From Candidatus Eiseniibacteriota bacterium (lineage in GTDB: Bacteria > Eisenbacteria > RBG-16-71-46 > JABDJR01): a stretch of DNA of 64,000 nt. The translations under genes and the position numbers were made by a program. Where the stretch lies: the NCBI GenBank assembly GCA_963762255.1, contig CAVXKA010000001.1, positions 800,001 through 864,000 of the forward strand. The letters run 5' to 3'. The notes beneath the pieces are model-generated. The model searched no databases, was not told the origin of the DNA, and worked only from the letters and a program-made list of their open reading frames with translations. Each line of letters starts with the position of its first letter. The stretch's first letter is position 1. Below are positions 49,408-62,710 of this stretch, one piece after another.

Positions 49408-49634
49408 TCGGACACATCCGCTGCCAGGCCCTCGTCGGCGAGGGCTTTCTCGTAGGTGGGATCCAGCTTCGCGCACTCGCGGGCCAGCCGTCCTTTTTCC
49501 AGGCGATCGAGCTTCTCGTCCAGCGCATCTTGGATGGCCCGGCTCCGATTCGGGAACTCCCTGTCGGCCACCAACCCGTCCAGCCTTTCCAAAGTCTTGT
49601 TGTCCAGTGTGATCGCGATCTTCGACTTCTTCAT
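49392..49634 (-). CDS. Ribbon-helix-helix (CopG/NikR-like) antitoxin
   Basis: KIAITLD...FPNRSRAI. Overlaps the toxin start. GGAGG RBS. Confidence 0.9.
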   Translation of the reverse strand: MKKSKIAITLDNKTLERLDGLVADREFPNRSRAIQDALDEKLDRLEKGRLARECAKLDPTYEKALADEGLAADVSEWPEY

Positions 49635-49645
49635 GGCCGCCTCCG

Positions 49646-49666
49646 GGTATGATGATATGTCATACC
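49646..49666. promoter_or_regulatory. Palindromic operator of the RHH-MazF operon
   Basis: Perfect inverted repeat GGTATGA-N7-TCATACC just upstream of the antitoxin RBS. Confidence 0.6.
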
Positions 49667-49692
49667 AGCGCGTGGAGCAAAGGAGCAAAGGG

Positions 49693-49851
49693 GTGGAACA
49701 CTCGGGGGATGAAGAGAGAATCTACGCGTTGGGGCACACCCACGCAGGCCGGCATCTCTTCATCGTATGGACGGTTCGCGAACGGGAGATCCGGGTCAGC
49801 TCGGCCCGCGACATGAGCACGAAAGAGCGCAAGGTTTATCGATCGTCATGA
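49693..49851 (+). pseudogene. 5'-truncated BrnT toxin
   Basis: HS.DEERIYALG.T..GRHLFIVWTVR..EIRVSSARDMS.KERKVY. The N-terminal FEWD...N..KH part is absent. Confidence 0.8.
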
Positions 49852-50126
49852 GTAACAAGAAGCCCCGTAGGTTGCAGAGCGAAGAAGCTGAGCGAAAGTA
49901 CTGGGAAGTGCATGAATCGACCCAGCAGGTGGATTGGTCCAAGGCCGAGCGCATCACCCTGTCCAACCTCAAGCCTTCAGTAAAGACGATCTCCCTGCGC
50001 ATCCCCGAATCGATGCTGGAGAAACTGAAGCTGCTCGCCAACCAGCGGGACGTGCCGTATCAATCACTGATCAAGGTGTTCCTGGCCGAGCGGATTCGCA
50101 AGGAATTGAAAGGCCAGGGCGCCTAG
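49848..50126 (+). CDS. BrnA/CopG-like antitoxin
   Basis: EEAERKYWE.H.S, NLKPS.KTISLR, RDVPYQSLIK. ATGA coupling to the BrnT fragment. Confidence 0.88.
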   Translation: MSNKKPRRLQSEEAERKYWEVHESTQQVDWSKAERITLSNLKPSVKTISLRIPESMLEKLKLLANQRDVPYQSLIKVFLAERIRKELKGQGA

Positions 50127-51879: not shown

Positions 51880-53568
51880 CTACTTCACGAACAGCATCCG
51901 CCGCGTCTCGTCGAAATGTCCCGCCCGAACGCGATAGAAATACACACCCGCGGGAGACGGAACGCCCGATGCGTCAACGCCGTCCCAGTTGAGTATCGTG
52001 GTGCCGCTGCCGGAGGATCCCTCGTAGCGGCGCACCAATCTCCCGCGGATGTCGAAGATGGAAACCGAGTAGTCGCCTGCTTCCGGCAGATCGAAGGCGA
52101 TGGCGGTGCGCGCGGAGAACGGGTTCGGCGCATTCTGCCTCACCGCGAACGCGACCGGGCGTCCTGGATCACCGGGGCCGACGCCGGTGGTCGCCAGGTA
52201 CTCGAACCCGGTGGCGAGCGTATCGCGCGCGCCTTCCACGTCCACGATCACGTCCACCGGACCGCTCGCGCCCAGCATGGCCTGGGGAAGCGCGCAGGTC
52301 ATGATCGAGTCGCTGGGGCACTGCACGTCGGCGGCCGATGCGCCGCCGAAGGACACCGCGCGCGCGTACGCGGACGAGATTCCGAAGTTCTCACCCCGAA
52401 TGGTGATCACCGTGCCGCCGCCGATCGGGCCCATGTTGGGGGTGACGTCGAACACCTCGGGGGGCATCCACTTGATTGGGTAGCACACTTCGCTGACGCC
52501 CGGCAGCTCCAGACAGAGTGGCTCGCTGCCGCCGGGCACGCCGGGTAGGCCATCCACCACGAACGAGCTATGCCCTCCGTAGCTGAGCTCGCCGACGGGC
52601 ACGCCGCCCACGCTCGTGGAACGCTGCGCGCCGGAGCTGCCGAAGTTCTGCCCCTGGATGGTGAGGCGCACGCCACCTCGCGCGGGCATGAGCGAGGGCT
52701 CAATGCCGGTGATGACCGGTGAATCGTACGTGAAGAGCTTGGGTTGGGATGACGTCGATCCCGCGAACACCACGAGTTCGCCCGCGCCGGGATCATCCTC
52801 CGGCGTCGTGCACACGAGCATCGTCTTCTCTCGGGTGGAGCATGATGCGGGTTTGTTCTTGATCGTCACCGACGCGTCGGGGCCGAAGTTGTCTCCGACG
52901 ATCGTGATGACGGTGCCGCCCGCGGTTGGTGCATTCGGCGGGATGATCGATGACACCAGCGGCGGGTCGAAGTCGAAGGCGAAGCTGTTGGATAGCTGCC
53001 CGCTCACTGCGACTTGCAACGCCACGCGCGTGTTGGCGGTGCCGGCCGGGGTCACGCAAGTGATCATCGAGTGGCTCAGATGCTGCACGTTGCTTCCCGG
53101 CAGGCCGCCGAGCGTGACCGAGGTGGGGGCCGATGCGCGGCCGAAGTCCTGGCCGGTGATCGTGATGAGCACGCCACCCGCTGCGGGCGACGCGCCCGGA
53201 GTGACTAGACTGATGCTCGGCGAGTCGAACGTGAACGGCTCCGGCGGAGAAGATTCTCCGGTCGAGGAAAGCACGACGACATCTCTCGCGCCGGGATCGC
53301 CCTCCGGGCACGTGCAGATGATGCGCGAGAGACCCCAGTCGGTGACCTCGGCGCTCGTGCCGCCCACCGTCACCGTGCCGGCGTCGGCCGCGAAGTCCGA
53401 TCCGAAGATCGTGATCGGGAAGCCGCCGACGGTCGGGCCGTTGGTCGGAGAGATGCCGACGATCGAAGGCGGTGCGGCGTCGGCGGGCGCCACAACAGAC
53501 GGCGCCAGCGAAGCGATGAGAGCGAACGCGAACAGGAACGCGACGCGAGTCGTGACAAAGCGGCGCAT
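51880..53568 (-). CDS. Secreted protein with five IPT/TIG domains and C-terminal FlgD-Ig domain
   Basis: Signal peptide and five P.I..I.P...P..GG..ITI.G..F units. C-terminal QNAPNPF...IFDIRGRLV...WDG...AGVYF. Confidence 0.9.
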   Translation of the reverse strand: MRRFVTTRVAFLFAFALIASLAPSVVAPADAAPPSIVGISPTNGPTVGGFPITIFGSDFAADAGTVTVGGTSAEVTDWGLSRIICTCPEGDPGARDVVVLSSTGESSPPEPFTFDSPSISLVTPGASPAAGGVLITITGQDFGRASAPTSVTLGGLPGSNVQHLSHSMITCVTPAGTANTRVALQVAVSGQLSNSFAFDFDPPLVSSIIPPNAPTAGGTVITIVGDNFGPDASVTIKNKPASCSTREKTMLVCTTPEDDPGAGELVVFAGSTSSQPKLFTYDSPVITGIEPSLMPARGGVRLTIQGQNFGSSGAQRSTSVGGVPVGELSYGGHSSFVVDGLPGVPGGSEPLCLELPGVSEVCYPIKWMPPEVFDVTPNMGPIGGGTVITIRGENFGISSAYARAVSFGGASAADVQCPSDSIMTCALPQAMLGASGPVDVIVDVEGARDTLATGFEYLATTGVGPGDPGRPVAFAVRQNAPNPFSARTAIAFDLPEAGDYSVSIFDIRGRLVRRYEGSSGSGTTILNWDGVDASGVPSPAGVYFYRVRAGHFDETRRMLFVK

Positions 53569-53622
53569 GATGGTTTTCCTCTCAGGGGGACAATGCGGCG
53601 ACCGGGATAAAATAAGACCAAA

Positions 53623-53651
53623 ATAGTAGCTAATACTGGGGCCGGCGTCAA
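53623..53651 (-). promoter_or_regulatory. Sigma70-type promoter for the IPT/TIG gene
   Basis: Minus strand TTGACG-N17-TACTAT. The -35 overlaps the upstream gene's stop codon. Confidence 0.6.
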
Positions 53652-55708
53652 TCCCCTTGCGAGGCAAGCAGTTCCAGCATCTGCCGGGCCTCAGCGGAAC
53701 GCGGGTCTGCGGGGGCCGTGGCCAGAAAGTTCTCGAGGCTTCGCCGTGCCCGCGCCGGGTCGCGCACCGCGGGATGGAGCGCGAAGAGGAAGCCCTCGGC
53801 GCGCAGCACCTCGGGATCGGGCTGGAACGCGGCGTCGCCGGCCGGCCGGAGATCTGGCTGAAACTCCGAGTCGCTCAGCGGCCGCGCGTCGGGCGGCAGA
53901 CCGCTCGCATCGTGCCGGTCGAAGAACGCAATCAGCCTCGCGAACCCCGGGTGCTCCGCGGGCGTGATGTCGAACGCCTCGGGGCGGCAGAGATGGATCG
54001 CCGTGCGCGCGGCCAACTCGGCGAAGCGCGCGCGCGCGTCGGCCTCGAAGCTCCACGGATCGTAGCGGCGGAAGTAACTCTCGGTCTTCATCGCGGCGAA
54101 GAGATCGAGCGCGAGCATGGCCTGCTCACGCGGGCCGGGGGCCTGGTCCAGCCGGCTGGACCGCGCGCTGCTGTCCGCGGCCCCGCGTGCGTACGTCCGC
54201 AGCACGAACCCGGTCGGCGCGATCTCGTAGCGGGCCGCGTAGCTCGCTTCCTTGAGCCCCAAGAGCGTCACCAGACGCTTCCCCTCGAGGTGCTCGATCC
54301 ACGCGAGGTTGCCGCTCTGCGGCGTGCCGTCGTAACGGTCCTCGCGTCCGAGCGGCGACGGCAGCAGATCCGGATCGCGCCGTCGCAATGTGCGCACGTA
54401 CCACGCGAAGGTGAGCTTCTCCTGGTCCACCACCGCGACGTCGGGGCGCTCACCTTCGACAAGCTGAAGATACGCGAGTCCGTTGTGGAAGAGATCGCCC
54501 TGCGTGAAGAGCACGCCGCGCTCGGGCACGGAAGCAAGCACGCCGCGACACAGGTCCTCGGTGAGCGTGTTTCCACGTTGATCGACTGCGCGGTAGTGCG
54601 CCGCCACCGGCCACGCAAAGGCCGCCACGACCAGGACCGCAGCGGTCGCGCGCCGCCCGCCACCGCGAAGGCGTTCCAGCACGAAGGCCGCACCGAGCCC
54701 CGCTGTCAACGCGAGCACCACGTTCGGCAGGATGTAGAAACGCTCCACGACGCCGCGGAAGATGAGCGGATGCGACGGGAACCCGACCCGGGTGAAGAAG
54801 AACGTCTGCAGCAGCAGGAAGATGAGGATGATCCCGCCGAGCGCTCGGTGCTTGCGCGCCAGCGCGACCGCGCCGACGAGAGCAAGCGCTACCCCAAGCC
54901 ACGTGAACCCCTGAGGGAGTGACTGAAGATAGAGGAGCACGTGACTATGGTCGGCCGCGTGCCCCGCCTGCTCGGGATCCAGACGAAACGTGCCGTAGTC
55001 ACGGCGAAGCAGCACGCGCAGAAACGAATCCAGCGAGCGCGGATCGCCCCAGTTGAGCGCCGGATTGCGGAGCGCGGCCCACGGAAGATAGAGGAGAGGC
55101 GCCAGGCCGATCGCGGCGCCAAGCGCGCCTACGCCCAGAACCCGCCTGCGGCCGGTCAGTGCCGTCGCTACCGCCACCGGCAGCGCCAGCAGCACGAGCG
55201 TGTGGTGATGCGACAGAAGTAGCGTGCACAAGAGCCCGATGCCGAATGCCACCGCCGGCCGCGGCGACTCAGGCCAGCGGACGAACAGCCAGAGCAGCAA
55301 CGCTGCGAGAAGCGCATTCGGGGCGAACACCTCGGCGACCAGCGCGTATTTCCAGAGCGGCGCGGAGAACGCGAGAAGGAACGCGGCCACCAACCCCGCT
55401 GCTGTCGACCGCGTTAGTCGCCGCACAGCATCGGCCAGGAGCACCGCCGCCACCGCCGCGCACGCTGCGGAGAGCAAGTTCATGCGCGTCGCCACCGAAC
55501 CGATCGGCACCAGCGTGATCCAGAGGTGGCCGAGCATCGTGAAGAGGGGATAGCCGGGTGGATGGGCAACGCCCAATGTCTTCGCCACCGTGATCAGTTC
55601 GCCCGAGTCTCCGCCCGGCACCGAGCGCTGCAAGGTGGCCGCGTAAACCGCGAGCGGAATCGCACCCGCAGCCACCAAGAGAGGAAGGACGATGCGTCGT
55701 TCGTTCAC
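53648..55708 (-). CDS. DUF2723/TMEM260-like GT-C protein O-glycosyltransferase
   Basis: GDSGELI...GVAHPPGYPLF, RMNLLSA, AEVF, SHH, LYLP, NWGDP. C-terminal TPR-like helix. Confidence 0.88.
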   Translation of the reverse strand: MNERRIVLPLLVAAGAIPLAVYAATLQRSVPGGDSGELITVAKTLGVAHPPGYPLFTMLGHLWITLVPIGSVATRMNLLSAACAAVAAVLLADAVRRLTRSTAAGLVAAFLLAFSAPLWKYALVAEVFAPNALLAALLLWLFVRWPESPRPAVAFGIGLLCTLLLSHHHTLVLLALPVAVATALTGRRRVLGVGALGAAIGLAPLLYLPWAALRNPALNWGDPRSLDSFLRVLLRRDYGTFRLDPEQAGHAADHSHVLLYLQSLPQGFTWLGVALALVGAVALARKHRALGGIILIFLLLQTFFFTRVGFPSHPLIFRGVVERFYILPNVVLALTAGLGAAFVLERLRGGGRRATAAVLVVAAFAWPVAAHYRAVDQRGNTLTEDLCRGVLASVPERGVLFTQGDLFHNGLAYLQLVEGERPDVAVVDQEKLTFAWYVRTLRRRDPDLLPSPLGREDRYDGTPQSGNLAWIEHLEGKRLVTLLGLKEASYAARYEIAPTGFVLRTYARGAADSSARSSRLDQAPGPREQAMLALDLFAAMKTESYFRRYDPWSFEADARARFAELAARTAIHLCRPEAFDITPAEHPGFARLIAFFDRHDASGLPPDARPLSDSEFQPDLRPAGDAAFQPDPEVLRAEGFLFALHPAVRDPARARRSLENFLATAPADPRSAEARQMLELLASQGD

Positions 55709-55764
55709 GACGCGGGAGTATACCGGCTTGCCCAAACCGGGCCGCAGCGGGATCATCGCCGGCC

Positions 55765-56985
55765 ATGGCATCGCTCCCCCTCGCACCCCTCGTCATCTTC
55801 GCCGCGACCTATTTGGGCCTGGCTCTCGGCCGGATCCCCGGACTCGCGGTGGACCGCACCGGCATCGCGCTCCTGGGTGCGGTGGCCATGCTCGCCGCTC
55901 GCACTGTGACCGTCGAAGAAGCCAAGGCCGCGGTGGACGCGCCCACCATGATCCTCCTCTTCGGGATGATGGTGCTCTCCGCTCAGTACCGGCTCGCCGG
56001 CCTCTACGATGCGATCGCGCGGCGGCTGGCGGGCGCGCCGAGCCCTCGGCGCATGCTCGCCGGCGTGATCGTCGCCGCGGCGATGCTGAGCGCGGTGCTC
56101 ACCAACGACGTCGTTTGCTTCGCGCTCACCCCGGTTCTTGTGGTCGGGCTCAAGGGAGCGGGTCTCAACCCGCTGCCGTACCTGCTGGCGCTCGCATGCG
56201 CCACCAACATCGGAAGCGCGGCCACTCCCATAGGCAACCCGCAGAACATCCTCATTTCGCAGAAGATGGGGCTCGCGTTCGGACCGTTCGTTCTGCACTG
56301 CATCGTCCCGGTTCTGCTCTCGCTGGTGGCGCTCTATTTGATGATCGTGCGGTCGGTGCCGAAGGTCATGCCCGCGCGCACTCTCGCGACCGAATCGTTC
56401 GAAACGCAACCGCTCCAGCGCGGCCAGGCTGCCAAGGCGATCGCCCTCACCGCGGGTGCAATAGCGCTCTTCCTCACCCCGGTTCCTGCGGCGCTCACCG
56501 CGATGGCGGTGGCCGGCGTGATCCTGGCCAGCCGTCGCATGCACACGCGCACCGTGCTGGGTCTGGTGGACTGGCATCTGCTCGCGCTCTTCGTGGGGCT
56601 GTTCGTGGTGGTGCGAGGACTGGAGGCGTCTGGGTGGGTCGGGGCCGCCGCGCGGCTTCTCGCGGTGTGGGGCGCCGACCTTGCCGTGCCGACGGTATCC
56701 ATCCCCGTAGTGGCGGTGCTCGGCAACCTCGTCGGCAACGTCCCCGCGGTAATGCTGCTCTTGCCGCTCACGCCGCCCGAGCCGATCGCCGGCTACGCGC
56801 TCGCGCTGGCGAGTACCCTCGCCGGCAACGCGGTCATCGTCGGCAGCATCGCCAACATCATCGTCGCGGATCACGCGGAGCGTGAAGGAGTCCGGTTCGG
56901 GTTCCGTGAGCACCTGCGCGTCGGGTTACCTATCACGCTGGTCTCGCTCGCGCTGGCGGTGGGGACCATGGTCTGGTGGAAATGA
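55765..56985 (+). CDS. SLC13/ArsB/CitM-superfamily anion permease (YbiR-like)
   Basis: DRTGIALLGA, LTNDVVC, NIGSAATPIGNPQN, VDW.LL.LF, NVPAV, STLAGN...GSIAN. Confidence 0.9.
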   Translation: MASLPLAPLVIFAATYLGLALGRIPGLAVDRTGIALLGAVAMLAARTVTVEEAKAAVDAPTMILLFGMMVLSAQYRLAGLYDAIARRLAGAPSPRRMLAGVIVAAAMLSAVLTNDVVCFALTPVLVVGLKGAGLNPLPYLLALACATNIGSAATPIGNPQNILISQKMGLAFGPFVLHCIVPVLLSLVALYLMIVRSVPKVMPARTLATESFETQPLQRGQAAKAIALTAGAIALFLTPVPAALTAMAVAGVILASRRMHTRTVLGLVDWHLLALFVGLFVVVRGLEASGWVGAAARLLAVWGADLAVPTVSIPVVAVLGNLVGNVPAVMLLLPLTPPEPIAGYALALASTLAGNAVIVGSIANIIVADHAEREGVRFGFREHLRVGLPITLVSLALAVGTMVWWK

Positions 56986-58668: not shown

Positions 58669-59889
58669 CTAGTTCCCGCCAGTGCCTGTGCCGTCACAGA
58701 TCCCGTCGCGATCGCGGTCCTGAATCGGATTGCGGAGCCGGATCTTGTCCTGGTCCTTATCCTGGTCCGGAACTCCGGTGCTGTCGCAAGTTCCGTCCTG
58801 GAGTTTGATCTGATCCCGGGTCCGGTCACCGGCCATGGAGAAGGTCATGGTGCTGTCGCAGCTTCCGTCGCGGAGCCGAGACTGGTCCCCGGACTGATCA
58901 CCGTTGCCGTCCCCATTGCGGGACTCGATTTGCTTCATGACCTGATCGCCGCCGAGGGTGGTCAGGCAGCTTCCGTCGCGATCGCGGTCCTGGATCGGAT
59001 CGCGGAGCCGGATCTTGTCCTGGTCCTTATCCTGGTCCGGAACTCCGGTGCTGTCGCAGCTTCCGTCGCGAAGCTTGATCTGGTCCCGGGTCCCGTTTGC
59101 GGATGTGGTGCCGGTTTCGACTGCGTTGTCGCCGTGCCCGCGGCCATGTCGCATGTCACCGCTGTAGCCCTGGCCGTGGCCGCGCGCGCCGTGCATCACC
59201 GGCTTCAGGATGAACACCTTGCTGCCGGGAGGCGTCTCAACCACCGACCTCGCCAGATCGAACCGGATCATGATCTCGGTCACCTGACCGTCGGCGACGG
59301 TGAACCGCACACCGACCTTCAGGTACTCGTTGTCTCCGGGGAGTCCAACCGGGTACGTCTCGCCGTCCTCGGTCACCACCCACGCCTCGACGATTCGCAC
59401 CGACAGGTGCGAGTAGTCGCCCGCGGGCAGATCGAGCGTCCCCAGCAGCAACGCCAAGGAGGTGTCGAGGTCGGCCGCGTTCAGCGTCAGCGGGTCCACG
59501 AGGAATTCGATCGGGACGCACGTGCTGTCACCGACTCCTTCGCCATCTCCCTGGTGCATCGAACTGTCTTCAGAGACGGGATACACGCGGATCGAGTCGA
59601 AGGTGACGAAGAGATCGGCGAGCGGGGTGCGCTTCTTGGAACCGGAGTTCCCGTTCCCCGCGGTTGCCGTCACGCCCTCAACGTCGTCGTTGAGCGTGCC
59701 GATGGCCTGTATAGAGACCGCGAGCATGCCCAATCCGGTCCCTGCCGCCGGCGGGTTGAAGTCGTCAATCGAAACCGATCCGGGAGCGGCGGGATTTCCG
59801 TCCGAACCGCACCCCCAAATCGCGAGAACCAACGCCAGGGCCGTGATGACCGGCGCCAAGCGTTTCAGATACACGATACGTTGCTTCAT
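58669..59889 (-). CDS. DUF4382-domain lipoprotein with repetitive D/R/Q-rich C-terminal tail
   Basis: Lipobox AIWGC. LPAGDYSHL, FDLARSV and FILKPV (DUF4382). LRDGSCD repeats. Confidence 0.82.
   Translation of the reverse strand: MKQRIVYLKRLAPVITALALVLAIWGCGSDGNPAAPGSVSIDDFNPPAAGTGLGMLAVSIQAIGTLNDDVEGVTATAGNGNSGSKKRTPLADLFVTFDSIRVYPVSEDSSMHQGDGEGVGDSTCVPIEFLVDPLTLNAADLDTSLALLLGTLDLPAGDYSHLSVRIVEAWVVTEDGETYPVGLPGDNEYLKVGVRFTVADGQVTEIMIRFDLARSVVETPPGSKVFILKPVMHGARGHGQGYSGDMRHGRGHGDNAVETGTTSANGTRDQIKLRDGSCDSTGVPDQDKDQDKIRLRDPIQDRDRDGSCLTTLGGDQVMKQIESRNGDGNGDQSGDQSRLRDGSCDSTMTFSMAGDRTRDQIKLQDGTCDSTGVPDQDKDQDKIRLRNPIQDRDRDGICDGTGTGGN
58703..59093. repeat. Two ~121-bp intragenic direct repeats (58703-58823 and 58973-59093)
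   Basis: Near-identical copies 270 bp apart encoding GTRDQIKLxDGxCDSTGVPDQDKDQDKIRLRxPIQDRDRDG (first residue varies). Confidence 0.9.
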
Positions 59890-59967
59890 CCGAGTAACTC
59901 CTCTTTGCCCAGGGGATTGTTCGACCCGCCCCGCGCCATTGGCGTTTCTTACTTGGGACACCCGTGA

Positions 59968-59993
59968 GACGGCTTGACCTATGATCGGTTACA
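59968..59993 (-). promoter_or_regulatory. ECF-type promoter for the DUF4382 lipoprotein
   Basis: Minus strand TGTAAC-CGATCATAGGTCAAGC-CGTC (N16). Confidence 0.75.
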
Positions 59994-60028
59994 GGGGGGA
60001 AACCTTTCGCTCTTGGTCGGGTTTCTTC

Positions 60029-60054
60029 TGTAACTCGGGGGATCGGGCGTCGTC
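60029..60054 (+). promoter_or_regulatory. ECF-type autoregulatory promoter of the sigma operon
   Basis: TGTAAC-TCGGGGGATCGGGCGT-CGTC (N16). Confidence 0.75.
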
Positions 60055-60130
60055 GAATCGGGTGAAAAGAACCGGCGGCTCGGGAACTCCGTCCCCCCTC
60101 CCGTTCCGAACCGCGCACTGCGCGCATGGG

Positions 60131-60730
60131 GTGGTCTTGAGCGATCGTAGCCGTCTAGACCCCGCTGAGGAGTCCGATCTTCTCCGGCGGTCGCAGCAGG
60201 GCGACACCGAGGCTTTTGGCCGACTGGTTCGGGCTCATCAGGATTCGATTTACGGGCTCGTGGTCCGCATGGTGCGTGACCCGGGTCTTGCCGAGGAGCT
60301 GACACAGGACAGTTTCCTCAAAGCGTACCGGGCGCTGGATTCGTTCCGGGGCGCTTCGCGGTTCTCGACCTGGCTCTACCGCATCGCGGTCAACGCGTGT
60401 CACGACCATCGGGAAAGCTCGGCGGCGCGGCGCCGGAGTCAGGAGACGAGCCTCGATCGCCTCGAACATCACGACATGGATCCGGCGGCACCGACCGCGC
60501 GGCCCGACCAGGCGGTCGAGTTCAACGAGATGGCGGGACATTTCGACGCGGGGCTCGCGACGCTGGAGCCCACTCACCGAGAGGCGTTCGTGCTCCGCCA
60601 CCAGGAAGGTCTTGAGTACAGCGAGATCGCCGAGGCGCTCGGCATCTCCGCCGGAAACGCAAAGGTGCGGGTGCACCGGGCACGCGAGGCGATCCTCGCC
60701 ACGCTGCGCACCCGCGGTTACGAGGTCTGA
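60131..60730 (+). CDS. ECF RNA polymerase sigma factor
   Basis: GDTEAFGRLV, AEELTQDSFLKAY, FSTWLYRIAVN, EGLEYSEIAEAL, KVRVHRAR. Start approximate. Confidence 0.93.
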   Translation: MVLSDRSRLDPAEESDLLRRSQQGDTEAFGRLVRAHQDSIYGLVVRMVRDPGLAEELTQDSFLKAYRALDSFRGASRFSTWLYRIAVNACHDHRESSAARRRSQETSLDRLEHHDMDPAAPTARPDQAVEFNEMAGHFDAGLATLEPTHREAFVLRHQEGLEYSEIAEALGISAGNAKVRVHRAREAILATLRTRGYEV

Positions 60731-60733
60731 ACG

Positions 60734-61427
60734 ATGACGAACGATCGTGAAACCCGAGACATCGACCCTCGGATTCACGCCTATCTGGACGGGGAACTGT
60801 CCCCTTCGGAAGCTGCTGCCTTCGAAGAGGACCTGCGATCTGGGAAGATCTCCGGCAGGCAGTTGGATGCCCTCCAACGGATCGACATCTGGTGCCGGGC
60901 TACCTCCTCGCGGGCCCCGTCCTCTCTTGCTCGGGACGTGGGTCGCGCGCTTCGGGACCAGCGCGCGTCCGCGCCCCGGGCGTCCTCCTCCCGCGTGCCT
61001 TCTTGGCTCAACCCCGCAGGTTGGAACGTTGGGTGGACCGGTGGGTCGCGCCGGTATTGGATTCCTGCTGCGGCGGCGCTGGCGGTGCTGGCCCTGTGGT
61101 TGGTCGTTCCTCGTCACGACTCCACTGAATCTGGCCAATCTCCCCACCGAAGAAGCGATAGCCTCCCCGAATACGGTACGCTATGAGTTCCGGTTCGAGG
61201 CTGGATCCGCAGCCGAGGTGTGCCTTGCCGGCGACTTCAATAGCTGGAAGGTTTGCGATGCGCGGCTGAGCCGCGTCGGGGAGGATGTCTGGTCCGTTTC
61301 GCTGGAGCTCCCACCCGGGCGCTACGAGTATATGTTCGTCGTCGATGGCCGCTGGGTGACCGATCCCCACGCCATGGGCTTCCACGACGACGGATTCGGG
61401 AACCAGAACGCCATCCTCGTCCTCTGA
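60734..61427 (+). pseudogene. Anti-sigma factor with TM helix and C-terminal CBM48/AMPK-type glycogen-binding domain, split by a +1 frameshift near 61142-61145
   Basis: The first frame has IHAYLDGELS and TM AAAALAVLALWLVV and stops at 61186. The +1 frame has VCLAGDFNSW...WSVSLELPPGRYEYMFVVDGRWVTDP...DDGFG. Confidence 0.8.
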
Positions 61428-62710
61428 TCCTTTCGGCTTTCGCCGCAATCCTCCTGCTCGCGCTCGCGCTCTCTTCGTGCCCCGTGTTCGCGGTGTCTCC
61501 CCAATGGACCATGGGCCTCACCCTGGGTCACGACGATCAGGTGCTGGCGAGCCCCGATCTCGGGGTAGTGCGCCCGGTCTCGGAGGGGTTTCTCACCGGA
61601 TCGTCGCGCCTGTTGTTGCGTTGGACCGACGCTGCGTTGAGCCGGCGTCTGGATCTCGACGGCTCCGCCGCCGCGACCGGATACGGCTCGCAGGTGGAAG
61701 GCGGGGACACCGATCTTCGCCTCGGGGGGGCTTACCGCCAGCGACTTTCTGCACGGTGGGCGATGGATATGTCGGGCGGTGTGTGGCGATCCCGCCGAGG
61801 CGCCGCCGGATCCGTGCTCGATCTCGACCTTGCCCGCGCGGGCGCGCGCGTTGCGTGGACACCGGGTGATCGTTGGGTGCTGACCACGGGAATCCTGCCG
61901 GCCTGGTTGGGATTCCCCGAGCGCCTCGTGTTCCCCGATTCGACCGAGAGCGAATGGCAGCGTCAGCTCGATGTCTCGGCAGGCGGGCTCTACCGCTTTG
62001 ACGGCGACCGCTACGTCGGCGCCGAGTTCATTCATCGGCGGACGACTTCGAATCAGGACCGATCCGAGTACACCGGACCGCTCTTCGTACTCCGAGCAGG
62101 GGCCCCGCTCGCCTGGGGTCTCGCATTGACCGCCTACGGCAGCTACGCGCACCGCGCCTACGACGTCGCGCCTGTGCTGGCCGCGACCGACGCCGGCGCT
62201 TACGACACGCTCGGAGTGCGTCGCGACGACGGCTGGCTCGTGAGCGCATCGATCGAGCGGCGAGTCGGCAGTCGCGCGCACGTCTTCCTCGACGGGTCCT
62301 ACCTGCACCAGGCCTCGAACGACGCGTACTACGCGTTCGATCAGGCTCGGATTGCGGTGGGGATCTCGGTGGATCTCGCCGCGCCGTCACGGGCGCGGCA
62401 GGGCGGTCCCGAGCTTCAGCGGGCAGGCCCCATGGCGCCGCTCATCACCGCGCAAGGGGTCCGATTCCGCTACCGCGCGCCTCAAGCCCGAGCGGTCGCC
62501 CTGGTGGGTGGATTCAATGCGTGGGACGCCGAGCGCTCGCCCCTGGCCGGGCCCGACAAGAACGGGGTGTGGGAGACTGTGGTGCCCGTAGTCGCCGGCG
62601 TGTGGCGATATGCATTCCTGGTGGATGGGGAGTGGGTGAGCCCCCCCGATGCCCCCCGCTACGAGGACGATGGATTCGGGGGGCGCAACGGTGTCATCCA
62701 TGTGCGATAG
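61424..62710 (+). CDS. Putative outer-membrane beta-barrel protein with C-terminal CBM48/AMPK-type domain
   Basis: Signal-like N-terminus (start uncertain, CTG) and alternating beta strands ending SNDAYYAFDQARIAVGISV. VALVGGFNAW...GVWRYAFLVDGEWVSPP...DDGFGG. Confidence 0.78.
   Translation: MILSAFAAILLLALALSSCPVFAVSPQWTMGLTLGHDDQVLASPDLGVVRPVSEGFLTGSSRLLLRWTDAALSRRLDLDGSAAATGYGSQVEGGDTDLRLGGAYRQRLSARWAMDMSGGVWRSRRGAAGSVLDLDLARAGARVAWTPGDRWVLTTGILPAWLGFPERLVFPDSTESEWQRQLDVSAGGLYRFDGDRYVGAEFIHRRTTSNQDRSEYTGPLFVLRAGAPLAWGLALTAYGSYAHRAYDVAPVLAATDAGAYDTLGVRRDDGWLVSASIERRVGSRAHVFLDGSYLHQASNDAYYAFDQARIAVGISVDLAAPSRARQGGPELQRAGPMAPLITAQGVRFRYRAPQARAVALVGGFNAWDAERSPLAGPDKNGVWETVVPVVAGVWRYAFLVDGEWVSPPDAPRYEDDGFGGRNGVIHVR

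Follow-up and report, generated by a model that had tools for sequence, protein, structure and literature searches.

The locus considered here lies in a 64,000-nt stretch of a Candidatus Eiseniibacteriota genome (GenBank assembly GCA_963762255.1, contig CAVXKA010000001.1, positions 800,001 to 864,000 of the forward strand; this whole stretch is referred to as the window), and it raises the question of whether a bacterial GT-C membrane glycosyltransferase that resembles human TMEM260 modifies the secreted protein encoded by the next gene, which is composed of five IPT/TIG domains and ends in a C-terminal domain (CTD) of the type IX secretion system (T9SS) type. The original prediction, made from this DNA, had described a DUF2723 GT-C gene located 80 bp upstream of a co-oriented gene for a secreted five-IPT protein, and both genes were found as described, the former as a PF11028 gene and the gap as 79 nt. 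In the present study, we observed homology to TMEM260, conservation of catalytic residues, a fit of the IPT domains to the TMEM260 sequon, and recurrence of the gene pair within the phylum. The GT-C and IPT genes may constitute an enzyme-client module, in which a periplasmic O-glycosyltransferase has the neighbouring IPT protein as its client, and we give this reading an even chance. The features of the pair are as follows, with the residues of the enzyme numbered as in its 712-aa open reading frame (ORF) and with A1 denoting an alignment of 61 homologues of the enzyme.

53648..55756, minus strand: GT-C membrane glycosyltransferase, TMEM260-like, 702 aa (PF11028 match, human TMEM260 match, AF2 model)
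55157..55609, minus strand: PF11028 core with the sugar-recognition motif, D60 (human D52) and H75 (human H67), both invariant in A1 (61/61)
54419..54496, minus strand: stretch of the Rossmann-like periplasmic domain from D431 (human D441; 60/61 in A1) to E456 (human E466; 55/61 in A1)
53569..53647, minus strand: intergenic gap, 79 nt, with a sigma70-like site and the ribosome-binding-like stretch GAGAGGAAA (sequence reading, promoter and terminator search)
51880..53568, minus strand: secreted protein, 562 aa, with a putative signal peptide, five IPT/TIG domains, and a T9SS-type CTD (PF01833, PF13860, PF18962, TIGR04183)
53221..53469, minus strand: IPT domain 1, aa 34-116, sequon PSIVGISPTNGPTVGGFPIT, candidate acceptor T53 (PF01833, sequon fit)
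52963..53220, minus strand: IPT domain 2, aa 117-202, candidate acceptor T136 (PF01833, sequon fit)
52720..52962, minus strand: IPT domain 3, aa 203-283, candidate acceptor T222 (PF01833, sequon fit)
52477..52719, minus strand: IPT domain 4, aa 284-364, candidate acceptor T303 (PF01833, sequon fit)
52192..52461, minus strand: IPT domain 5, aa 370-459, candidate acceptor T389 (PF01833, sequon fit)
51922..52110, minus strand: C-terminal sorting domain of the FlgD_ig / Por_Secre_tail type (PF13860, PF18962, TIGR04183)

Both genes are on the minus strand, with the GT-C gene upstream and the IPT gene directly downstream. The ORF of the GT-C gene occupies 53648..55786 and extends to a GTG at 55786, with its stop codon at 53648-53650; the start is likely to be the ATG at 55756, which gives 702 aa and agrees with the gene call of the collection itself (P0001). 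The residue numbers used below (D60, H75, D431, etc.) are those of the longer, 712-aa frame. The IPT gene starts at the ATG at 53568, which is preceded by the stretch GAGAGGAAA, and ends with a stop at 51880.

As judged from its sequence, the window enzyme is a true relative of TMEM260 with its catalytic residues intact. Residues 60-210 matched PF11028 (TMEM260-like, formerly DUF2723) with 106.3 bits against a cut-off of 24.2 (E 2e-30), in addition to a weak match to PMT_2, and a phmmer search of all PDB sequences returned human TMEM260 (9rql_A) as the sole match (258 bits, E 1.4e-75). The alignment was collinear between residues 39-494 of the query and 31-503 of the human chain, which covers the GT-C core and the greater part of the Rossmann-like domain, and the 61-homologue profile of A1 matched human TMEM260 with E 2.6e-111. 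The closest homologues of the window enzyme (P0002-P0004) showed 77-82% identity.

The available part of the cryo-EM preprint on the structure of TMEM260 (10.64898/2026.03.17.711096) places D52 and H67 in a sugar-recognition motif, R264 and Y267 in a donor-loading loop, and R355 in transmembrane helix 10 (TM10), proposes that D441 of the Rossmann-like domain acts as the base activating the acceptor Thr, and gives E466, G440, F349, and V352 among the peptide contacts. Human D52, H67, R264, Y267, R355, D441, and E466 correspond to D60, H75, R261, Y264, R349, D431, and E456 in the window enzyme, human G440 corresponds to G430, and F349 and V352 are also kept as F and V. These correspondences were counted by hand on the phmmer alignment and the positions were then checked in A1, in which the eight donor, catalytic, and contact residues checked were conserved in 55-61 of the 61 homologues. 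The sequence QGDL aligned with human RGDL, and VDQE was common to both proteins.

The same part of the preprint (10.64898/2026.03.17.711096) describes the layout of TMEM260 as a transmembrane core of eleven helices, a five-stranded Rossmann-like domain, and a helical C-terminus with a TPR domain. The AF2 model of the window enzyme (pLDDT 92.5, pTM 0.92) has membrane helices up to approximately residue 391, a five-stranded alpha/beta domain, and a helical C-terminus, and this predicted secondary structure fits the layout described. A Foldseek search with the model returned generic GT-C enzymes only (ALG12, PglB, ArnT, and OST, and also AftB and Emb proteins), with TMEM260 entries absent from the matches. 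No significant alignment of the C-terminal helical domain to the C-terminus of human TMEM260 was obtained with the 61-homologue profile, and the only tetratricopeptide-type match in this region was TPR_9 (E 0.007), which fell short of the cut-off.

Regarding the downstream protein, PF01833 (TIG) matched in five stretches (E 4e-61), and all five domains carry the GGxx[IL]TIxG strand that had been noted for each of them in the original prediction (GGFPITIFG, GGVLITITG, GGTVITIVG, GGVRLTIQG, and GGTVITIRG). In the source assembly (4.14 Mb, 3 contigs, 94% complete), TIG matches above the E 1e-3 level were confined to this protein, apart from one weak match (E 9.4e-4). The hydrophobic N-terminus ending in ADA was read by eye, rather than by a predictor, as a putative signal peptide. 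The C-terminus matched the T9SS type A sorting domain TIGR04183 of NCBIfam with 36 bits against a cut-off of 23, and the genome has a SprA match over the cut-off, a PorU-like gene with 402 bits, under the cut-off of 420, and 69 matches to the FlgD_ig-type CTD at E <= 1e-5; as far as these matches indicate, it appears to encode a large T9SS secretome.

The available part of a second preprint (10.64898/2026.09.21.753134) gives the TMEM260 sequon as Px6Px3Px2GGx3T, with variation tolerated and Ser as a possible acceptor. The corresponding pattern P.{6}P.{3}P.{2}GG.{3}[TS], which spans strands A and B, fitted exactly in five of the five IPT domains, and among the six-frame ORFs of the whole genome it occurred five times in the window IPT protein and as six singletons elsewhere. 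This fit is weak evidence, and discriminates poorly, because the sequon overlaps the consensus of the IPT fold, a point taken up below.

Whether the pair recurs was examined in 206 Eisenbacteria genomes, in which orthologues of the enzyme were defined by a threshold of E <= 1e-60 and the flanks of all orthologue places were fetched. An orthologue was present in 35 genomes, at 37 places, and 36 loci including the window were scanned, comprising 24 with an enzyme of the full-length type and at least 1 kb downstream, five with a shorter-matching type of enzyme and a sufficient flank, and seven that were not judgeable; genes in the fetched loci were called with our own heuristic based on ORFs and GC3, and some starts are uncertain. 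A gene for a protein with a signal peptide, several IPT domains, and a CTD was located immediately downstream of the enzyme gene and in the same orientation in six of the 24 assessable loci, namely, the window (family f1), L098 (family f17), and L104, L105, L109, and L126 (genus g20, family f10), which represent three genera. The gaps between the two genes were approximately 55-200 nt across these loci, and Pfam confirmed TIG and FlgD_ig in the three pair loci submitted. No pair was present at the five loci with the shorter-matching enzyme type, and a tblastn search with the IPT proteins of the pair loci found no IPT gene at two loci located at contig ends, L108 (813 bp downstream) and L102, where the 302 bp downstream are too short for a judgement. 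A 1433-nt contig from another sample, which is approximately 91% alike, also spans the GT-C/IPT junction; it is a close relative and not independent support.

In a BLAST comparison of 12 loci, the window had nothing in common with the other pair loci except the enzyme and IPT genes, and the flanks of L105 differed from those of the other g20 pair loci. In a maximum-likelihood tree of 32 enzymes from a quick search, four changes were needed to account for the six paired enzymes, and well-supported branches forced at least three of these changes. The five other pair genomes have one to four TIG-bearing ORFs each, and the multi-IPT ORF always adjoins the enzyme. Under a chance model with p <= 4/2500 per locus, 0.04 pairs were expected in 24 loci, and the probability of at least four was 7e-8; the genus-level figure was 9e-7 with n=12, and becomes smaller with the later count of 10 assessable genera. 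Even in the window genome, chance adjacency is unlikely because TIG occurs essentially in one protein and there are three PF11028 genes. The enzyme was also more frequent in genomes with a strong TIG match (E <= 1e-11; 12/20) than in those without (23/186; Fisher p 5e-6), as it was by genus (6/14 versus 8/69, p 0.011), with the qualification that these co-occurrence p-values overstate the case because kin are not independent.

Several side observations were made at the fetched loci. The syntenic g20 loci L104, L109, and L126 have a common hairpin-like element, CCCCTGTTAG..GGGG, just after the stop codon of the enzyme gene in the GT-C/IPT gap, which could be a processing or attenuation signal. 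The secreted IPT-repeat protein of L105 (L105:3958-7095, minus strand) has a match to Pfam PK_Tyr_Ser-Thr above the cut-off at residues 428-472 (E 1e-9, 38.5 bits), and a weaker match to the same family was found in the IPT protein of L104. Genes for other CTD secreted proteins are located no more than two genes away from the TMEM260-like gene at several loci, and their products include a He_PIG/Big_9 repeat protein (L098:11250-14312), a protein of an unassigned family (L126:9559-11997), an alpha-amylase (L104:13564-16773), and an S8 peptidase (L005:11195-14752); their proximity may be due to chance given the abundance of CTDs, or they may be further clients.

The survey was extended in two directions. 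In the 40 nearest genomes together with the window's own, PF11028 was present in 40/41 and TIG in 21/41, and orthologues with 42-60% identity, which were found in six of the 40, had unrelated neighbours. Across phyla, a scan with A1 and one genome per species yielded 80 loci from many phyla, in which TIG was sought with a profile built from 44 Eisenbacteria domains only; this profile may miss distant TIG domains, and in the window genome it recovered the window IPT protein only and missed the weak Pfam match. TIG was found within the flanks of one of these 80 loci even at E <= 1, and this locus (L097, the same place as L126) belongs to Eisenbacteria and has a gene for a ten-IPT protein that follows the enzyme gene in the same orientation. 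Homologues in Rokubacteria and Bdellovibrionia matched human TMEM260 with 244 and 235 bits, respectively, and are thus about as close to it as the window enzyme. In five genomes of other phyla with a TMEM260-like enzyme, TIG proteins were present in all and near the enzyme in none, as judged by contig numbers and positions. A metagenome scan with the window enzyme alone returned at least one locus, which was distant (27% identity).

The genome that contains the window has three PF11028 genes. The two other paralogues matched human TMEM260 with 85 and 15 bits, against 258 bits for the window enzyme, and both adjoin GT2 genes assigned to lipid-sugar or polysaccharide functions, not IPT genes. 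The DUF2723 paralogue of 891 aa with TPR repeats (G000:C1:1579073-1585374; L015:8074-14374) is followed by genes for an epimerase/dehydratase, an ArnC/PgfS-like polyprenyl-phosphate glycosyltransferase, a sugar-1-phosphate nucleotidyltransferase, and an HddA-like kinase, and, from its predicted gene content, this locus looks like a self-contained operon for a lipid-sugar donor and a GT-C enzyme. The paralogue of 566 aa (G000:C2:353408-356711; L016:7909-11211) adjoins a convergent PgaC/IcaA-like GT2 gene (E 1e-120).

In the mechanism that we infer for the pair, from the sugar and its donor to the acceptor site, the sequence of steps, and the transfer itself, the multi-pass GT-C core of the enzyme would be embedded in the inner membrane, with the active site, the Rossmann-like domain, and the helical C-terminal domain in the periplasm, and this core would accept a sugar (probably a hexose) carried on polyprenyl phosphate. 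The IPT protein would be exported unfolded via Sec, and the enzyme would bind the still-extended stretch (Px6Px3Px2GGx3T) destined to form strands A and B in each IPT domain and transfer the sugar to the B-strand Thr (T53, T136, T222, T303, and T389). Action on the unfolded stretch is proposed because TMEM260 is described as acting on unfolded substrates in the available part of the structural preprint (10.64898/2026.03.17.711096). The IPT protein would then fold and leave the periplasm by the T9SS through its CTD, and the end state would be a glycosylated IPT stalk on the cell surface. A complex prediction for the enzyme (A1) with residues 28-60 of the IPT protein, which was run without controls, scored 0.00 against a mark of 0.32 and gave no answer either way.

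A number of results weigh against this enzyme-client module, beginning with the distribution of the pair. Eighteen of the 24 assessable orthologue loci lack it and have unrelated genes downstream, such as those for a hybrid histidine kinase, an iron repressor with FeoB, a fatty-acid desaturase, a porin, and a polyketide synthase, and the nearest relative of the window enzyme on the tree, L004, is one of the unpaired enzymes. When tables were compared by eye, no TIG match was located near a PF11028 match in any of the 40 nearest genomes; with our own TIG profile, the pair was present in 0/76 loci not labelled Eisenbacteria, and the TMEM260-like genes of Rokubacteria and Bdellovibrionia were without an IPT gene in the fetched flanks. 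Conversely, eight of the 20 strong-TIG genomes, including G003, have no enzyme, and in genus g4 a nine-IPT CTD gene directly follows ffh (SRP54), and the TMEM260-like gene is far away (L011:7783-11969, L012:3913-8120). At the locus itself, the gap contains one sigma70-like site (TTGACG-17-TACTAT, 9/12 matches, 53651..53623; shuffles average 0.3 sites for the region), the -35 hexamer of which begins at 53651 and overlaps the stop codon of the GT-C gene; the promoter that the original prediction had ascribed to the IPT gene was thus recovered as a promoter-like site, which weighs against assuming that the pair is co-transcribed. A search for a terminator-like site in the 79-nt gap found none, and a look-up of RNA runs returned none listed as containing the stretch. 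The peptide-contact residues R439 and P443 of the human enzyme are Q and F here, and there is no polyprenyl-phosphate sugar synthase near the window enzyme, whereas one is encoded beside the 891-aa paralogue.

The sequon also has to be counted on this side. GGxxxT was present in 44/44 IPT domains of the window protein and five Eisenbacteria IPT proteins that are not beside the enzyme, and the Thr, together with much of the sequon, is therefore regarded as a consensus of the IPT fold and not as a mark of glycosylation. Strict sequons were found in 5/5, 8/10, 3/10, 1/10, 2/10, and 2/10 domains of the enzyme neighbours and in two per 6-9 domains of the non-neighbours. We considered two further candidate signals and rejected both: an enrichment of strict sequons in enzyme-adjacent IPT proteins, because the counts of neighbours and non-neighbours do not separate, and a tracking of the acceptor Thr with the presence of the enzyme, because all 44 domains carry the Thr, including the six of G003, which has no orthologue of the enzyme.

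A competing explanation is that the enzyme is a general periplasmic protein O-glycosyltransferase with many exported clients, for example T9SS cargo, of which the IPT protein is at most one, and that the linkage reflects co-regulation of surface functions rather than a dedicated pair. The 18 orthologue loci without an IPT neighbour, the 23 phylum genomes with the enzyme and without strong TIG, the other CTD secreted proteins that flank the enzyme in L098, L126, L104, and L005, and the equally TMEM260-like enzymes of other phyla without an IPT neighbour are all in accordance with this explanation. CTD neighbours are, however, expected fairly often by chance because the genome has 69 CTD matches, whereas IPT genes number only one to four per genome and are nevertheless the recurrent immediate neighbour. 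The repeated strict sequon is confined to the IPT protein in the window genome, and human TMEM260 is described as domain-specific in the available parts of the two preprints (10.64898/2026.03.17.711096, 10.64898/2026.09.21.753134). A general transferase is unlikely in our estimation, albeit the strongest of the competing explanations. Adjacency may also be devoid of function, having arisen by chance or persisting as an ancestral gene order that has not decayed in some lineages. The absence of the pair from most orthologue loci and from the closest relatives, the promoter-like site of the IPT gene, the position of the g4 IPT gene beside ffh with the enzyme elsewhere, and the fact that the finding was selected for its fit to human biology point in this direction, while six pairs in 24 loci against 0.04 expected, their distribution over three genera and four places on the tree with unrelated flanks, the same orientation and close spacing in all six, and the origin of the five further pairs in a search that did not select for IPT make it very improbable.

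A third possibility is that the two genes are linked and the IPT protein is not the substrate, such that the enzyme modifies a non-protein component of the envelope (lipid, lipopolysaccharide, or polysaccharide) and has the IPT protein as a partner on the cell surface, which might, for instance, bind that glycan or be anchored to it. Many bacterial GT-C enzymes act on lipids or glycans, Foldseek returned ArnT, AftB, and Emb alongside protein transferases, the two paralogues adjoin polysaccharide or lipid-sugar genes, and the acceptor Thr is kept with or without the enzyme. On the other hand, the residues corresponding to the putative base D441 and to the peptide contacts G440, E466, F349, and V352 are conserved in the window enzyme, and the match to TMEM260, the only one returned by phmmer from the PDB, is far stronger than that to any GT-C enzyme acting on lipids or glycans; we regard a non-protein acceptor as decidedly unlikely. 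Returning to the enzyme-client module, the proposal of an enzyme-substrate pair in the original prediction gained from the enrichment within the phylum, from the true relationship of the enzyme to TMEM260, and from the 5/5 sequon fit, and lost from the absence of the pair outside the phylum. The neighbourhood enrichment that it had called for was strong within the phylum for this GT-C subfamily (6/24 loci) and was not found beyond it with our own TIG profile (0/76 loci).

The same-strand genes downstream of the pair encode a SnoaL-like protein and a zinc alcohol dehydrogenase, and a CitMHS/ArsB-type transporter gene is located upstream and divergent from the pair; these genes are unrelated to the pair. 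Elsewhere in the window, an apparent type II toxin-antitoxin pair of the BrnT/BrnA type is encoded by overlapping small ORFs at 49456-50126 on the plus strand (BrnT_toxin E 9.5e-11, CopG antitoxin E 1.3e-26). Upstream of the pair, the region 58669-62710 contains genes for a DUF4382 protein, an ECF-type sigma factor (59981-60730), and a protein with a C-terminal CBM48/AMPK1_CBM domain (61253-62710), for which no link to the GT-C/IPT pair was seen.

TMEM260 was recognised as an IPT-specific O-mannosyltransferase in 2023, and in the available part of that report bacteria are mentioned only as holding 'distant homologs' of it (PMC10214176). We found no published bacterial member of the TMEM260/DUF2723 family with an assigned substrate in the literature searched, and what is new in the present study is that a comparative neighbourhood test was positive within one phylum. 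The pair is a candidate, open to testing, for the first enzyme and substrate of the TMEM260/IPT kind in bacteria, and it illustrates that gene order alone can suggest a client for an orphan GT-C family of bacteria, in one phylum at least. If real, the pair would offer a simple two-gene system for studying acceptor recognition outside the endoplasmic reticulum (ER), it would add a domain-specific O-glycosylation step to the export of bacterial surface proteins, and IPT-directed glycosylation would predate animals. A broader idea is that IPT O-glycosylation by TMEM260-type enzymes is an old bacterial periplasmic two-gene system and not a metazoan invention, and that the animal ER pathway by which plexins, MET, and RON mature descended or was acquired from it, which we hold to be doubtful. 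If it is true, it would provide the first bacterial substrate of a TMEM260-type enzyme, and T9SS cargo would have a second pathway of protein O-glycosylation. The bacterial roots suggested in the original prediction are an inference, and the homologues of Rokubacteria and Bdellovibrionia, which are about equally close to human TMEM260, are unpaired.

With the other bacterial DUF2723/TMEM260-like genes, the window enzyme has the Pfam family and the GT-C fold in common; the two paralogues in its own genome are much further from human TMEM260 and are located beside GT2 genes rather than IPT genes. Among better-known protein glycosyltransferases, PglB/OST (N-glycosylation) and the Pmt enzymes (Pmt1-Pmt2 and Pmt4; O-mannosylation), for which peptide complexes have been solved, act extracytoplasmically on unfolded acceptor stretches. 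The window enzyme is like them in its predicted GT-C fold (Foldseek E 3e-6 for PglB 5ogl, with Pmt4 and Pmt1-Pmt2 lower) and in the lipid-linked donor that it would use, and unlike them in that identity is 11-17%, TM-scores are approximately 0.4, and acceptor motifs and extramembrane domains differ.

The closest comparison is with human TMEM260 itself (PF11028; PDB 9RQL/9RQM/9RQN), the ER protein O-mannosyltransferase for the IPT domains of plexins, MET, RON, and fibrocystins. Unlike the human enzyme, the window enzyme is bacterial and would be located in the inner membrane facing the periplasm, and its donor would be a bacterial polyprenyl-phosphate sugar, not dolichyl-phosphate mannose. Its C-terminal helical domain has no significant alignment to the human TPR domain, the two peptide contacts R439 and P443 are replaced by Q and F, and its candidate client is a T9SS-secreted repeat protein encoded next door. 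Like the human enzyme, it is a protein of similar length (702 aa versus 729 in the solved chain) that matches collinearly over the GT-C core and the Rossmann-like domain, keeps the named donor and catalytic residues, and has a predicted secondary structure that fits the human layout, and, as in the human system, the five IPT domains of its neighbour fit the published sequon.

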